A stretch of 64,000 nucleotides of DNA from positions 1 to 64,000 of the forward strand of contig CAYONI010000001.1 in assembly GCA_964405295.1 (NCBI GenBank). The letters are read 5' to 3'. Made by a program: the position numbers and the translations under genes. This DNA is from an uncultured Methanosarcinales archaeon (GTDB taxonomy: Archaea; Nanobdellota; Nanobdellia; Woesearchaeales; CAYZNE01). The notes beneath the pieces were generated by a model. The model was given only the letters and a program-made list of their open reading frames with translations, made no database searches and was not told the DNA's origin. Below, piece after piece: positions 6,176 through 52,286 of this stretch (position 1 is its first letter; every line of letters starts with the position of its first letter).

Positions 6176-7679
6176 ATGAAAAAAAAAGAGGGAGAGTTAT
6201 TAATTAGAGAACTTAAGAAGGTTGTTATTAAGAAATGTGGTTATCTATTATCGAAGAAAATCATTCTTGAGAAGGAGGTTTATTCATTAATTAAACTATT
6301 TTTTAAGAGCTATTTCGAAATTGATTATGAATTATCATTTGCGGATTTAATTTCTCATATAGATAAAGGAAATATTACTGAAGAAACAAAAAATAAATCA
6401 ATAGGGTTCTTAATAGGTATAAATAAAGAAGTATATTCTGGTGTAGAAGTTGAGCATCCTGATTTTCATTCGGTAATTAATAATTTTAAGGAATTAGTTG
6501 AAGCTTTAATTAAAGAGAAAGAACAGCTTTCATTATTTGAAAACGGGCTTAAACACGCATTAAAAACATCTTTTGTTAAGAGTCTTTTTATTAAGAAAAA
6601 GAACATCAAAATTGATGAGCCTATTAATATTGAAAAGACATATGTTTCAGTTAGAGAAAAATTAATTGATAATATAGATAAAGTCATAGGGCAGCCCATT
6701 ACTTATAATAAGAAGAAGTTATCTAGTAAGAAAAAGATTTCTAATGTTAAGGATATTATTCCAACTAAAATTCAAACAGAACTTGTCAAAGAAGATAAAA
6801 TGGTTTCTCCAGAAGATCTTTTTAATAGATATGGTCCGGATANNNNNNNNNNNNNNNNNNNNNNNNNNNNNNNNNNNNNNNNNNNNNNNNNNNNNNNNNN
6901 NNNNNNNNNNNNNNNNNNNNNNNNNNNNNNNNNNNNNNNNNNATGATGTTAATGATGTTAATGATGTTAATGATGTTAATGATGTTAATGATGTTAATGA
7001 TGTTAAGATTGATTCCACCAAGAATATTTCTAATAATCAAACTCATAAAGAACTTGTTAAACTTAAAGAGAACATAGATGAATCAAAAAAGGAACCTATT
7101 AAGAATTCAATTATTATTCCAGAAGAAAAAATCAGCATTCCTCATTTGGCAAATAGTAATTTGTCTGAATCAGATCTAAGAGATATTGATTGGTCTGCAG
7201 ATGTTAGTTTTCAATCTAAAAAGAATAATATAAGTACTCATAAAGAAGTTAATCCTATTGTGAAAGATTTTGTTGAGGCAGAGTTTTATGAGGATAAGCT
7301 AGATGAGTATTTGGATAATAAAGAAGCAGTTTTTTCAGATAAAGATGTTAAAGTTCATGAAAAACTTCTTATTGATGCTGAAAAATACATGGATAATACT
7401 TCAGAAAAGTTAAAGAAAGTTATTATTGGTGCATCAGTAAGTAATAAAAAAGCTGTTGCAGATAATGCTTTATCGTTTCATCTAAAGATAACTAATTTTA
7501 TTGGTAAGATGCATAAAGATATTAATATTAAAGATATGAGGCAGTTAAGTATAGATTATAAAAGCACGCTTGGGTTATATAAGCTTTTAACAAAAAAAGA
7601 GAAAAAATTGTTTTATGATGATTTAATGACTGCTTATAATTTAATAAATGATTATAAGAAAAATAAAAAAGTGATTTAG
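6176..7679 (+). CDS. Hypothetical protein, probably one gene interrupted by an assembly gap, with an internal DVN repeat
   Basis: ORFs 6176..6946 and 6744..7679 are open on either side of the 100-N gap. The frame change is explained by an arbitrary gap size. Confidence 0.6.
6943..7005 (+). repeat. 9-bp tandem repeat (ATGATGTTA)n encoding (DVN)n
   Basis: Seven visible copies directly after the N gap; true copy number unknown. Confidence 0.9.
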
Positions 7680-10694: not shown

Positions 10695-10714
10695 GGTTAT
10701 TTTTTAGAAAATAA

Positions 10715-10936
10715 TGCTTCAAACGGGCTTCTTGCTTGAAAATTAAATTTTCTGCGTCACAGGAGCTTCGTTCAAATCTAGTTAGAATAATTAGGGTATT
10801 TCTTCGAAACACTTTAAACATGTTCCAAACGGGATCCGTAGCAAACTTGTTTGCGAGGCATCCAATAAACGAAGTTTATTGAGTGTCTTTGAATCACTTT
10901 TGGAGTTTACTAAGGTATTCTTAAGAATACCTTTAA
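10715..10936. repeat. Two degenerate copies of the tRNA-Glu 3' end with structured spacers
   Basis: TGCTTCAAACGGG at 10715 and TGTTCCAAACGGGAT at 10821, versus TGCTCCAAACGGGAT at the tRNA (10937). Perfect palindrome AAGGTATTCTTAAGAATACCTT at 10912-10933. Confidence 0.85.
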
Positions 10937-11011
10937 TGCTCCAAACGGGATTCGAACCCGTGTCCTCGGCGCGAGAGGCCGAGATGATTGGCCGGACTAC
11001 ACTATTGGAGC
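10937..11011 (-). tRNA. tRNA-Glu(CTC)
   Basis: Reverse complement folds as a cloverleaf: GCTCCAA acceptor stem, anticodon loop CT-CTC-GC, T arm GGTTCGAATCC. No encoded CCA. Confidence 0.95.
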
Positions 11012-11021
11012 AAAAAAAGAA

Positions 11022-16907: not shown

Positions 16908-18131
16908 ATGAAAAAAATAAATACAATAGGAATTTTAGCATTTATAATAATTGCAACTTTACTTCTTTCTGCTTGCAGTTTGACTTATATGCCTGACAAT
17001 GAAACTGCATTTGATATGGATTCAGATGCGCTTTATGATAGAAGTGAAATTATGTTTGATGATGTGTCTGATTCAGGTTTGTCTGATGAAGATAGAGAAT
17101 TAATAAATTATGCTGAGGATGGTATTACTGAATCAGATGTTTCTATGACAATAGATGCTATTGAGGGTGAACTTATCGATCTTCAACCAAAAGCAGTTGA
17201 TCCAGATGATGATTTAGTCGAATATTCTTTTTCAGGACCATTTAACGATGTCGGTCTGTGGCAAACAAAAGATGGTGATATTGGAAAATATCTTATAACC
17301 ATAACTGCAACTGATGGAGATTTAATAATAAAAGAATATGTTTTAATAATTATGCATGCTCGGAATAGGGCTCCAGTTATTGAGTGTCCAGAAGATGTAG
17401 TTGTTTTTGAAACGGGAATTGTAAATTTAAATTGTAACCTTTATGATTTAGAAAATGATGTTTTTTCATTATCTTATTCCGGTTGGATGACTTCTGATGA
17501 ATATACAACGACTTATGATGATGCAGGAGAGTATACAGTTATTGTATCTGCAAGAGATAGTGAGAATAATACTATTCAAAAAGAAGTAAATATTATTGTA
17601 AAAAATAAGAATAGGCTTCCTATGTTAAGCGGTGTTGAAGATGTTTACGCAACTGAATCAGATATTATTATTATGGGTGTTAGTGCTGTTGATCCTGATA
17701 GTGATAATCTTGTTATAACTTTTGGTTCACCTTTTGATGAGGATGGTGTATGGATCACTGCAGATGGTGATGATGGATCTTATGCTTCATATGTGCAAGT
17801 AAATGATGGTGTTGATACTGTAACTGAAAGTTTTAATGTTTTTATTGAACATTTAAATACAAGACCTTACTTGGCTCCAATTGAAGATATTGAGATAACT
17901 GAAGGAGATCTTGTTTTAATAGAAACTAATTCAACTGATGCTGAAGATGATGAGTTAACAATAACTTTTAGTGGTTGGATGACTTCAGAAGTATATGCAA
18001 CAACTTATGATGATGCAGGTGAGCATTATGTAAAAGTTACTGTTAGTGATGGAGAACTTGAAGTTTCACAAAATGTAAAAGTAACTGTTGCTAATTTGAA
18101 CAGGCCTCCTGTGTTTGTTGTTCCAGGATAA
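16908..18131 (+). CDS. Acidic lipoprotein with tandem Ig/cadherin-like repeats
   Basis: Lipobox LLSAC; repeated SGWMTS..Y.TTYDDAGE and F..PF...G.W.T..GD units. Confidence 0.75.
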   Translation: MKKINTIGILAFIIIATLLLSACSLTYMPDNETAFDMDSDALYDRSEIMFDDVSDSGLSDEDRELINYAEDGITESDVSMTIDAIEGELIDLQPKAVDPDDDLVEYSFSGPFNDVGLWQTKDGDIGKYLITITATDGDLIIKEYVLIIMHARNRAPVIECPEDVVVFETGIVNLNCNLYDLENDVFSLSYSGWMTSDEYTTTYDDAGEYTVIVSARDSENNTIQKEVNIIVKNKNRLPMLSGVEDVYATESDIIIMGVSAVDPDSDNLVITFGSPFDEDGVWITADGDDGSYASYVQVNDGVDTVTESFNVFIEHLNTRPYLAPIEDIEITEGDLVLIETNSTDAEDDELTITFSGWMTSEVYATTYDDAGEHYVKVTVSDGELEVSQNVKVTVANLNRPPVFVVPG

Positions 18132-18287
18132 TTATTATTTATTCAACTTTGTTGTGTTTAGTTTTGCTAAACAACCAATAGTCTTTGACTATTGTGTTAA
18201 TGATTAAATTTTTTTAATTTTTGTTTAATAATGTTCAATAACTAATAGTTATTGAACATTTTATTTTAGAAATATAAAGGTGAAAAC

Positions 18288-18683
18288 ATGAATAAGAAAA
18301 CAAGTTTATTGATAATACTATTATTAATAATAGTACTTTTAGGAGTATTAAATTTAATGTGGGTTATGGATATTAAAGATACAGAATTAGAAGTTAATAT
18401 AGATTCTTCTGTGCCTGTATTGTCTGGTCAAACTGTGAAAACTGTTTTTATGACACAGCATCAAGATAGACTTTATCCAGAAACAATTACTGCAAATAAA
18501 GGTGATATTTTAATAATTAGTTTTGCAGATAAGAATGTGACAACTTTGGAAATTCCTGGTTATGATCTTACTCAAAAAGTTAAGGTTTATAATTTTGAAT
18601 TATTTTTAGATAAACAGGGAACTTTTGAAATATATTGTCATGATTGTGTATCTAAATTTCCTACAGTTCTTATTGTTGAATAA
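18288..18683 (+). CDS. Membrane-anchored cupredoxin-like protein
   Basis: N-terminal TM, PETITANKGD, GTFEIYCHDC. Confidence 0.6.
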   Translation: MNKKTSLLIILLLIIVLLGVLNLMWVMDIKDTELEVNIDSSVPVLSGQTVKTVFMTQHQDRLYPETITANKGDILIISFADKNVTTLEIPGYDLTQKVKVYNFELFLDKQGTFEIYCHDCVSKFPTVLIVE

Positions 18684-18689
18684 TTTAGA

Positions 18690-18735
18690 TTCCGGCTTTT
18701 TGTCGGTGCCAATAACTCTTGAAGTTATTGAGCAT
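18690..18735 (+). repeat. Dispersed double-hairpin element (TTCCG..CGG-TGCCAATA..TATTGAGCA)
   Basis: Same architecture as the copies at 26065, 28111 (minus strand) and 52242 and inside the tRNA-Glu repeats. Confidence 0.75.
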
Positions 18736-18795
18736 TTTTATCTTTTCTTAAAGAAATCTTTATAAATAGTTTATTTCTTCTATTAGTAATGTACC

Positions 18796-18905
18796 GAGTC
18801 CGTAGCTTAGTCTGGTGGAGCGCTGGTCTTATATGGCCAAATCTCGTTTTAGGGGTTTTGTTCTGAGTTAGTCAGTGGTCGGGGGTTCAAATCCCCTCGG
18901 ACTCA
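18796..18905 (+). tRNA. tRNA-Ile(TAT) with a 36-nt intron at position 37/38 (18834-18869)
   Basis: Body nearly identical to tRNA-Ile(GAT) at 21318. Anticodon TAT at 18830-18832. Bulge-helix-bulge with a CTTA/TGAG central helix and two 3-nt bulges. Confidence 0.9.
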
Positions 18906-19030
18906 TTTTTTTTCTTATGAATTTGTTTTGGGATTTGAACATGTTCCCGTGGTACCAATTGGGCTCATTTCTATATTATATTTCTACTATAACAAAAATA
19001 TTAAATACTAAGACTTCTAAGTTAGTTAAT

Positions 19031-19828
19031 ATGAAGAATAAAGAGATATTTAATTGGCTTGTAAGAGAACACGTTGGTAGAGATTGGATAAATGTTAGAA
19101 AATATGTAAAAGATGGAACCTTAAATTCTATGAAAATTATTCCTGGTAATACTGAAAATCCCTATTATGGAGGAATCCTTATTTTTGCAAAAGGAAAAAA
19201 GTTTGCAACTAATCTAAAAAAGATGAATATCGTGCTTGCAGGAAAGATGAATGTTTCTTATAATCTTTCTACATTCGATAGGTTTAGTAGATATTGCAAG
19301 AAGTTTAGAGTTGAAGATGGTGCAACAGTAATTGATAAGAGTAGTGGATTGGCTTATCATGTTTCTGTTTTTAATAATAATCCTCAGATATTCTGGACAT
19401 TTAAAGAAAGGTGGAATTTCGCATTTAATGGAGTTTATAAGACATATAAGATTGGGAAGATGCTTCCATCAGATTTTACAGATAATAAAGGATTAAATAA
19501 AGTTGGTGATTCAGTGGAGCTTATAGGTACTAAAACTTATGTTGCTATTGTTTTGCCTCAAGCATATCCTAAAGTTCATACGTTTCAAATAAAAAGAACT
19601 GCATATACTTCTCTTGGAATGGGTAAAGTGACTCATTTTGATAGTGAAGGGTTGTTAGAAGAGTTTTATCTTGCGTACATACCTAAACATAAAGGAGAAT
19701 TTCTCGATGCAAAGCATAAGGTTGTTGGGGTATATAGGTACTATGACCGTAGTAGAGGAGTAAAGAAAATATTCAGAAGAGAATTATTAATAGGTTTTGG
19801 TGATTTAAAGAATATTGGGATGAATTAA
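19031..19828 (+). CDS. Hypothetical protein, possible degenerate DAC (DisA_N) fold
   Basis: Start moved to ATG 19031 because the track start overlaps the tRNA. GGILIF..EDGATVID..LIGTKT..GKVTHF pattern. Confidence 0.55.
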   Translation: MKNKEIFNWLVREHVGRDWINVRKYVKDGTLNSMKIIPGNTENPYYGGILIFAKGKKFATNLKKMNIVLAGKMNVSYNLSTFDRFSRYCKKFRVEDGATVIDKSSGLAYHVSVFNNNPQIFWTFKERWNFAFNGVYKTYKIGKMLPSDFTDNKGLNKVGDSVELIGTKTYVAIVLPQAYPKVHTFQIKRTAYTSLGMGKVTHFDSEGLLEEFYLAYIPKHKGEFLDAKHKVVGVYRYYDRSRGVKKIFRRELLIGFGDLKNIGMN

Positions 19829-20731: not shown

Positions 20732-20833
20732 TTATTTCTTTAATCTTTTACGCTTTTCTTTCTTCATTCTTTTACGTTGCCACTTCCAACGCATTTGACC
20801 TTTCTTTTTCCAACGTCTTGAACTTCTCTTCAA
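20732..20833 (-). CDS. rpl41e: Ribosomal protein L41e (eL41)
   Basis: Read by hand: TTG start after a GGTGA SD; MKRSSRRWKKKGQMRWKWQRKRMKKEKRKRLKK*, matching the archaeal L41e pattern. Confidence 0.85.
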   Translation of the reverse strand: MKRSSRRWKKKGQMRWKWQRKRMKKEKRKRLKK

Positions 20834-20899
20834 TTTATCACCAAATTCTCATATTTTATTTTTGTTTCTTTCCTAATGGAAACCTCATATAATTTAAAA

Positions 20900-21175
20900 T
20901 GCTCCAAACGGGATCCGTAGCAAACTTGTTTGCGAGGTGTCCAATNNNNNNNNNNNNNNNNNNNNNNNNNNNNNNNNNNNNNNNNNNNNNNNNNNNNNNN
21001 NNNNNNNNNNNNNNNNNNNNNNNNNNNNNNNNNNNNNNNNNNNNNGAAGATTATTGAGCATCTTTGAATCCCTATAAATTTAAAATGCTCCAAACGGGAT
21101 CCGTAGCAAACTTGTTTGCGAGGTGTCCAATAATCGAAGATTATTGAGCATCTTTGAATCCCTATAAATTTAAAA
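20900..21175. repeat. 90-bp tandem repeat array, each unit starting with the tRNA-Glu 3' 15-mer; contains an N gap
   Basis: Units begin at 20900 and 21086 and the tRNA begins at 21176 (period 90). Visible unit sequences are identical. Gap at 20946-21045. Confidence 0.9.
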
Positions 21176-21250
21176 TGCTCCAAACGGGATTCGAACCCGT
21201 GTCCTCGGATCGAAAATCCGAGATGATTGGCCGGACTACACCATTGGAGC
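21176..21250 (-). tRNA. tRNA-Glu(TTC)
   Basis: Cloverleaf with anticodon loop TT-TTC-GA; almost identical to tRNA-Glu(CTC) outside the anticodon arm. Confidence 0.95.
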
Positions 21251-21317
21251 AAACTCTTGTAACTAATTGGATTAAACTTCTATTTAAAAGCTTTTTGAAA
21301 TTAGCAGAGTAATAAAA

Positions 21318-52241: not shown

Positions 52242-52286
52242 TTCCGTTTTATTGGTGCCAATAAATATTATTATATTTATTGAGCA
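52242..52286 (+). repeat. Dispersed double-hairpin element
   Basis: TTCCG-TTTTA-TTGG-TGCCAATAAATA-TTATTA-TATTTATTGAGCAT between a CDS and the convergent 5S gene. Confidence 0.7.

Follow-up and report, generated by a model that had tools for sequence, protein, structure and literature searches.

The stretch of DNA analysed here (the window, 64,000 nucleotides) belongs to genome G000, which is 97% complete, and contains a cluster of tRNA-Asn, tRNA-Ile and tRNA-Glu genes of which tRNA-Glu(TTC) is the final one. Behind this gene, a 90-bp unit is repeated in tandem around an assembly gap of 100 N (Table 1). One whole unit (21077-21166) and two partial units are visible and share 100% identity, in good agreement with the tandem array reported in a preliminary description of this DNA. 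Three parts make up each unit: a direct repeat of 24 bp that corresponds to the end of the tRNA and its trailer, a 50-nt module with one hairpin (H1) stacked on another, bulged one (H2), and an inverted T-arm of the tRNA that has decayed. The direct repeat is the same at 21077-21100, 21167-21190 and 20891-20914. The 15-mer from the tRNA 3' end with which the unit was said to open is exact (21086-21100), but the full direct repeat is 24 bp long because 9 nt of the trailer are included. Directly behind the array lies a 33-codon ORF rich in Arg, Lys and Trp (20732-20833, minus strand), which is conserved in genomes G001-G003 and which we presume to resemble ribosomal protein eL41.

Each contig end beside the gap shares 55 nt with the repeat, as is typical where an assembler leaves a loop unresolved, and we infer from this an assembly with k=55. 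Depth at the junction was measured in X1 and X2, two sequencing runs from which this DNA may derive. In both runs, the unit-to-unit junction formed its own 36-nt unitig with a depth of 27.8 and 26.4, respectively, compared with 41.8 and 40.3 for the unit body and 9.5-12 and 11-17 for the single-copy flanks. Since the junction unitig was present at 2-3 times the flank depth, the tandem array is real. It contains at least two and probably three to four identical copies, the latter being the best estimate from unitig depth, which is not itself copy number. A single unit was found at the same locus in the relatives of runs X3 and X4 and in genome G002. The array is likely an ordinary, late, strain-level expansion that arose after insertion, through slippage or unequal exchange between the 24-bp direct repeats. 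A second assembly gap in the window, at 6843-7006, is followed by a perfect 9-bp tandem repeat with seven visible copies in coding-like DNA.

Table 1. Positions of the parts of the tRNA-Glu(TTC) array and of related elements in the window.
Feature	Position	Strand	Remark
Intact host gene tRNA-Glu(TTC)	21175-21251	-	T-loop is the target site
First copy of 24-bp direct repeat	21167-21190	-	tRNA positions 59-73 plus 9 nt of trailer
Decayed inverted T-arm copy of the tRNA	21151-21166	+	Plus strand reads T-loop/T-stem; pairs with direct copy to form basal stem
Putative mobile module, orientation A (antisense to tRNA)	21101-21150	+	H1 stacked on H2
H1 of module	21101-21123	+	Closed by CC...GG
H2 of module	21124-21150	+	Bulged A at 21147, GAA triloop
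Second copy of 24-bp direct repeat	21077-21100	-	tRNA 3' end from position 59 plus trailer
Partial unit right of gap	21046-21076	+	Identical to whole unit
Assembly gap, 100 N	20946-21045		Hides 4 nt and probably one or two more units
Distal partial unit	20891-20945	+	Includes last 24-bp direct repeat (20891-20914)
Sister cassette, orientation A	10813-10900	+	89.5% identical over 86 nt; behind tRNA-Glu(CTC) 10936-11012
Full fold-back of trailer and tRNA end	10900-10935		Between sister cassette and tRNA-Glu(CTC)
Older decayed cassette, orientation B	10710-10785	-	Stacked behind first cassette at tRNA-Glu(CTC)
Relic of orientation-B cassette	18925-18970	+	Behind intron-containing tRNA-Ile(TAT) 18796-18905
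Dispersed module copy	18692-18736	+	8 nt behind stop codon of ORF 18288-18683
Dispersed module copy	52243-52286	+	T-rich intergenic stretch
Decayed module relic, bulge lost	18232-18260	+	Between ORFs 16908-18131 and 18288-18683

Among 33 tRNA calls with a canonical T-arm in G000, five carried a whole cassette with the 3' end of their own tRNA: Glu(TTC), Glu(CTC), Arg(CCT), Ser(TGA) and an intron-containing tRNA gene at C2:101226, the amino-acid types being Glu (twice), Arg, Ser and Tyr. Cassette relics were present at about seven more tRNAs (Ile-TAT, Phe, Arg-TCT, Trp, Asp, Lys-TTT and a displaced tRNA-Met end), and the cassette-bearing tRNAs of relatives included Gly, Trp, Ala, Val, Leu, Ile, Cys, Lys, Asp and Thr. 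At tRNA-Ser(TGA) in G000, two identical 100-bp units stand in tandem without a gap, and gap-free tandem cassettes likewise occur in G056 and G021, among further cassettes found across the order, some of them in tandem. The two Glu tRNA genes of the window share both their 3' end and their cassette. Module orientation varied between genomes and within loci. At Glu(TTC) the module is antisense to the tRNA (orientation A) in G000 and G002 and sense (orientation B) in G001 and G003, and both orientations are stacked at one tRNA in two cases, Glu(CTC) in G000 and Lys in G002. The tRNA-Ile(TAT) gene (plus strand) has a 36-nt intron and was detected only when introns were allowed, being missed by the default scan; the start of ORF 18875-19828 overlaps this gene and was probably called too early.

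Across the order, a search for the hairpin followed by a T-loop-like sequence matched 35 of 401 genomes, with 12 of the 30 listed loci directly behind a called tRNA. A looser genome-wide scan gave mostly chance matches and at least eight true cassette loci among the matches listed. The cassette was also present in two records labelled Candidatus Woesearchaeota (L172, L219). Viral contigs gave 28 and 9 pattern matches; none of these had a tRNA cassette, and the stem was plausible in no more than one. In three contigs of G000, no more than about 75 bases separate the contig terminus from the 3' end of a tRNA (C2 end, Thr-TGT; C17 start, Ser-GCT; C49 end, Gly-TCC), where unassembled repeats are possible. 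Within the same order, at least two unrelated hairpin inserts also duplicate tRNA 3' ends (L014:1569-1660, L132:1395-1480, L028, L125, L473), indicating that tRNA ends attract several families of mini-elements.

The layout at the tRNA genes comprises the intact tRNA, its trailer, the inverted T-arm copy, the module, a directly repeated tRNA end that starts at position 57-59 and the trailer again, and hence amounts to an inverted triplication in miniature whose third T-loop holds the module. Whichever strand it occupies, the module interrupts the copied T-loop directly behind TT, which gives GTT/C in orientation B and ATT/Y in orientation A (slash at the split). After the module the target resumes without loss of a base, except in orientation A of this genus, where one T is missing, and the base next to the module's terminal GCA usually agrees with position 57 of the local tRNA. 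By pattern search, 26 of 39 tRNA-end duplications had an inverted T-arm copy; several of the other 13 contained unrelated inserts. The inverted arm matched the purine of the local T-loop in 19 of 22 cases and the local T-stem in 53 of 104 comparisons (41.5 ± 3.5 after permutation, p 0.001), while its acceptor-stem part was overall no closer to the local tRNA (48/208 vs 43.3, p 0.20). Trailer and tRNA end are mirrored in full at some loci, such as Glu(CTC) of the window, and the turn at G52/G53 is often marked by a small GAAC-GNA-GTTC or TT-loop hairpin. One site outside tRNA genes, L429, displayed the same fold-back. The length of the direct duplication at tRNA ends varies, and for this reason, together with the absence of Cas1 from G000, a casposon was rejected. 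An internal contrast is offered by a 2.2-kb island at tRNA-Met (G000:C1:83033-85290, L493), which has a 31-bp direct repeat and leaves the T-loop intact. This island encodes no integrase and a single 355-aa ORF, which we take to resemble RelA/SpoT, and a cassette relic lies behind its displaced tRNA end.

Folded with RNA parameters, the unit adopts a Y shape (z about -2.6; 4 of 200 shuffles were equally good); with DNA parameters both arms are retained and the basal stem is replaced. The Y fold proposed earlier thus holds as the RNA minimum-energy structure, and its two arms, but not its base, persist in DNA. The pairing drawn for the second arm required correction, as TGC pairs with GCA in its outer part and a single A bulges out. 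In the direction of its own strand, the consensus of the module is CC-H1-GG followed without a linker by TGC-CAAWAA-x-TTWTTG-A-GCA. The two W positions, which were left free in the search pattern, agreed with each other in 82 of 89 distinct matches. In 13 aligned cassettes, related sequences from one of which the structure had been derived, 95.9% of cells were paired with 16 double changes; none of 500 shuffles matched this, and slid controls reached 32-44%. Homologous cassettes and covariation, both of which bear on the preliminary reading, were thus found among genomes of the order. The bulged A was invariant in alignment A1 and elsewhere formed part of the search patterns, and pairing at H2 positions 1-6 was imposed by the search filter and has no evidential value.

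Triloops occurred in 72 of 170 distinct H2 stems, with C-G closure in 49 and GNA loops outnumbering TNC loops by 13 to 4, so the unusually stable DNA mini-hairpin loops described for this unit hold in bulk. An H1 of the form CC...GG was present in 129 of 154 modules. TT preceded the module in 72 of 129 cases, compared with 14.6% of genomic CC, an enrichment that is inflated by T-rich intergenic DNA and spacers. With RNA parameters the GGTG strand folded better in 129 cases and the other strand in 37; with DNA parameters the numbers were 87 and 72, and neither strand was favoured. At gathering score, Rfam 15 matched only the tRNAs, and the unit corresponded to no known structured-RNA family. 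The resemblance of the H2 loop to the anticodon loop did not extend to other cassettes: TTC loops are found behind Asp and Ser, and other loops behind Glu in G002. Anticodon mimicry was consequently rejected, as the loop is neither kept across cassettes nor tracks the anticodon. We also considered a group II intron remnant in view of the GUGY...AY-like ends and the bulged A, and rejected it because the element measures 30 nt and its ends pair with each other.

The module is not confined to tRNA genes. A regular expression for the bulged hairpin matched 38 sites in G000 and one in the reversed genome; about 30 of the 38 look genuine, and crude ORF calling placed 11 sites 'inside' ORFs. Most dispersed copies in G000 occupy T-rich intergenic stretches, with a stop codon no more than about 35 nt away. 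Where orientation could be assigned, 11 were sense and 4 antisense, and the metagenome loci among the matches listed were sense in 20 cases and antisense in 4. The exact pattern matched 75 of 301 genomes of the order, including the unpublished G207, against 10 control matches in nine genomes. Among other orders of the class, one of 36 genomes matched, with a poor stem. A metagenome search gave at least 118 loci, nearly all of which form the stem. Nineteen dispersed copies of G001 and G002 were traced into G000, where six sites were clearly empty, one was probably empty and 12 were occupied; these polymorphic sites are not polarised for gain versus loss. At 10 of the 12 occupied sites the H2 loops differed, with flanking genes aligning at about 68-95%. 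G002 carries two modules at the site of the decayed intergenic relic in the window. Some dispersed copies may be kept as mRNA 3'-end elements.

Copies were also found within or beside other elements. The module lies upstream of a TnpB gene in L370 and within the ends of elements in G000 (contig C5) and G141 that we presume to be IS200/IS605-like. In G141 (L150-L155), a composite repeat of about 300 bp, present in at least 11 copies, combines two back-to-back modules with other hairpins and such an end. Two related DGRs (L392:2250-2760 and L371:390-830) have the module in their non-coding leader, ahead of template repeat and RT, and its loops differ between the two. This is possibly a conserved part of the DGR RNA or a shared old insertion. 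Identity of the whole family with a DGR hairpin was rejected, given that loops vary and most copies have no DGR.

A search for a mobilising enzyme gave no HUH (RAYT/TnpA) gene in G000, although one had been suggested to lie elsewhere in the genome: the Y1_Tnp profile had no match, and an HUH regular expression applied to ORFs below 420 aa returned two candidates, both false. Y1 was also absent from G001, G002 and seven other module-rich genomes (83-97% complete), and 10 of 20 genomes with at least three modules had none. Over 301 genomes, the association between Y1 and the module was weak (p 0.26, 0.03 and 0.15 at three thresholds, with kin not independent). Only one of 44 Y1 loci had a true module, 1 kb away. 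Cas1, the TnpB zinc ribbon and IS110 each gave no match in G000, and its one GIY-YIG and one HNH gene have no module nearby. Of 22 genomes with and 22 without the module, 8 and 5, respectively, had GIY-YIG genes; most of these encode long proteins, and the short ones were not flanked by modules. The one RT of G000 is located on a contig of 44% GC in a genome of 31% GC, which is probably foreign. Contigs C42, C54, C65, C76, C87 and C89 (43-46% GC vs 31%), which carry integrases and the RT, are probably all foreign to the bin. Clustering of module-adjacent proteins gave only housekeeping genes and no recurrent mobile gene, and a Pfam scan of these proteins covered 67 of 337. The tyrosine recombinase that had been suggested as a second candidate is represented in G000 by two full-length XerA-like genes on core contigs (C1:170266-171114 and C2:114708-115544), which scored 269.8 and 217.3 against NF040815 (cut-off 220), and by several other integrases. 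No module was found near the four integrase loci checked.

Judging by the observed anatomy and distribution, the polymorphism of sites and the insertion register, a gene-less, REP-like hairpin element of single-stranded DNA likely entered a copied tRNA T-loop and left the 90-bp unit as its footprint. The element part of the earlier proposal, a tiny non-autonomous element inserting serially at tRNA-Glu, is thereby supported; as worded it was too narrow, as insertion is not Glu-specific and the core is dispersed genome-wide. The fuller account that we favour, at about even odds, is that a non-autonomous single-stranded element is joined after TT by an enzyme acting in trans, that fold-back re-synthesis spares the tRNA, and that the direct repeats later expand. 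The single-strandedness, the enzyme and the order of these steps we infer. The enzyme would recognise the bulged hairpin in single-stranded DNA and join the module into exposed, single-stranded, T-rich sites. Such entry sites may include the T-loops of T-arm hairpins on either strand, U-tract stretches behind stop codons and the loops of other hairpin elements. At tRNAs, only events in which the 3' end is re-made would survive: two fold-backs during re-synthesis, one in the trailer and one at G52/G53, would produce the small inverted triplication and keep the gene whole. The inverted arm would then decay, and the direct repeats would permit the expansion and contraction of units.

The chief weakness of the single-stranded element is that the search for its mobiliser came out negative. 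In a bolder version, which we consider unlikely, the module is a mobile hairpin of the whole order, and the enzyme that moves it belongs to none of the Y1, DDE, Cas1 and IS110 classes. This enzyme would insert the module into single-stranded T-loops and drive a programmed double fold-back re-synthesis, and in this genus the hairpin would have been domesticated as a signal at mRNA 3' ends. Enzyme-driven re-synthesis of this kind would make any tRNA gene targetable without the element carrying its sequence and without killing it.

The two XerA-like recombinases, together with the other integrases of G000, keep alive a different explanation, which is possible although we doubt it. The unit would be the cargo-less product of a tyrosine recombinase, with the inverted arm and direct copy folding into a single-stranded att site like attC or that of CTX phage. 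A XerA-type enzyme would exchange this site with the T-arm, and repeated integration would build the array. We take the basal stem, bulged stem and variable tip of the unit to resemble the anatomy of attC. A circle re-entering the same tRNA end would give the observed order of parts, the shared 3' end and cassette of the two Glu genes fit such an origin, and T-loops are a known integration sub-site according to the accessible text of one source (PMC8371274). However, near-identical modules stand behind different tRNAs, each with its own end, and one circle cannot restore many tRNA ends. In addition, the copied T-loop is split, whereas the ordinary tRNA-Met island with its 31-bp repeat keeps it intact, most modules have no att-like flank, and the integrase loci checked were free of modules.

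The sense-strand bias of the dispersed copies and their better fold as RNA, which speak against the single-stranded DNA element, also fit a role in RNA. The array would be co-transcribed with the tRNA and cut at its pseudo 3' ends into RNAs of about 90 nt, and the module would be an RNA-stabilising or terminating structure. The E. coli TLRs, three of which are processed sRNAs in the available portion of their description (PMC8144298), are a precedent for this. Behind stop codons and before U-tracts, the sense strand is the preferred one for dispersed modules, which also fold better on that strand with RNA parameters and occur in DGR leaders. Still, the co-transcribed small-RNA array put forward in the preliminary description is weakened by the module's occurrence in either orientation behind the same tRNA. 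The copy number is one in relatives, most tRNA genes have no cassette, the loops are DNA-type triloops that do not track the anticodon, and Rfam gave no match. Sense bias and RNA fold support an RNA role for the dispersed copies, and not for tRNA cassettes in both orientations; for the array as a whole we regard an RNA function as improbable.

It is similarly improbable, and slightly harder to defend, that no dedicated enzyme is involved, and that fork stalling at T-arm hairpins and template switching by the host produced the inverted triplications, into which a host hairpin was patched through microhomology and gene conversion. In yeast, template switching gives inverted triplications at interrupted inverted repeats, according to the accessible text of PMC10766183, and the negative searches for a mobiliser (Y1, Cas1, GIY-YIG, TnpB, IS110, HNH) and the fold-back at the non-tRNA site L429 point the same way. 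Nevertheless, the module ends and the T-loop register are constant across many families and clean empty sites exist, which is not expected from random template switching. An assembly artefact in which a single unit is displayed twice would suit the standard gap size, the 55-nt overlaps seen at other gaps of the assembly and the single copies of relatives, but it is largely refuted and very improbable, because in each run the junction forms a separate unitig, 2-3 times as deep as the flanks, and gap-free tandem cassettes are found at tRNA-Ser (2 x 100 bp) as well as in G056 and G021.

Returning to the single-stranded hairpin element, its main interest lies not in the array itself but in an order-wide jumping hairpin with a fixed T-loop register, an inverted triplication and a missing enzyme. 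Because ends and register are fixed, orthologous sites are found both empty and filled, and both orientations occur at one target, the mechanism becomes testable once the enzyme is found. Entry into any tRNA gene without carrying a tRNA end would, if true, be a new targeting logic. In practical terms, such arrays break assemblies beside tRNA genes and can be mistaken for the att sites of islands. The accessible parts of the literature treat the spread of REP-type repeats and the origin of tRNA-linked repeats as open questions (PMC8266576, PMC3333891, PMC3733652, PMC6006769, PMC8144298), and one small archaeal element now links these two kinds of repeat.

Titles and abstract openings in the literature, with few subscription papers among them, contained no description of this element. 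Non-autonomous derivatives of IS200/IS605 (PATE-type) have hairpins with an extrahelical base and insert 3' of a short T-rich motif without target duplication. The module is similar in these respects, and it occurs inside presumed IS200/IS605-like ends in G000 (C5) and G141. It is not at the ends of the 44 Y1 loci checked, the genomes richest in it have no Y1, and G000 gave no match for TnpB.

REP and BIME repeats are described, in the accessible parts of four papers, as imperfect palindromes of 20-50 nt with a conserved bulge, intergenic and mostly behind genes, which form mosaics and tandem copies of strain-variable number, are alike within a locus and are presumed non-autonomous (PMC8266576, PMC3333891, PMC3733652, PMC6006769). 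According to two of these sources, in their available text, the hairpin that TnpA-REP requires must be single-stranded and bulged, and in nick-and-extend models tandem units are added together with flanking DNA (PMC8266576, PMC3333891). Measured against those descriptions, the module is likewise a short, imperfect, bulged palindrome, multi-copy, intergenic, mostly downstream of genes and variable in tandem number. It differs in being archaeal and in having two stacked hairpins with conserved ends CC and GCA. The conserved GTAG/CGTC foot is absent; on the left the module ends in CC, the flank before it is variable and in most cases closes with TT, and GTAG occurs only inside the H1 of this genus. 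In contrast to REP-RAYT pairs as described there, no Y1 gene is flanked by the module (genomes 83-97% complete), and the module enters tRNA T-loops with an inverted triplication of its target. As tests for the GTAG foot and for a flanked RAYT gene found neither, we do not class the module as REP/BIME.

The accessible text on the E. coli TLRs (tyrT, rrA/B/F) describes repeats of 18-19 bp of the upstream tRNA or rRNA end, one to five per locus and with no known origin (PMC8144298). Like the TLRs so described, the array consists of units in tandem downstream of a tRNA, about 3-4 in number, and every unit terminates in the 3' end of that tRNA, here 15 nt from the tRNA and 9 nt from the trailer. 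The unit departs from them in holding a module common to dispersed repeats, in either orientation, and an inverted T-arm copy. As at the T-loop att sites of tyrosine integrases, in the available part of their description, the tRNA is intact, a displaced 3' fragment lies downstream and the junction falls in the T-loop (PMC8371274); as in integrase islands, a direct repeat of the tRNA end bounds the element. Compared with the same account, however, the units of 57-147 bp contain no gene, the T-loop of the fragment is split, and an inverted arm is present. Many different tRNAs are entered by one module, unlike in the islands described there. Finally, the triplication with an inverted centre, junctions at short interrupted inverted repeats and one arm that later decays recall ODIRA as set out in the accessible text of PMC10766183, from which the cassettes differ in measuring tens of bases instead of kilobases and in combining a foreign module at one junction with a fixed register and no internal origin.
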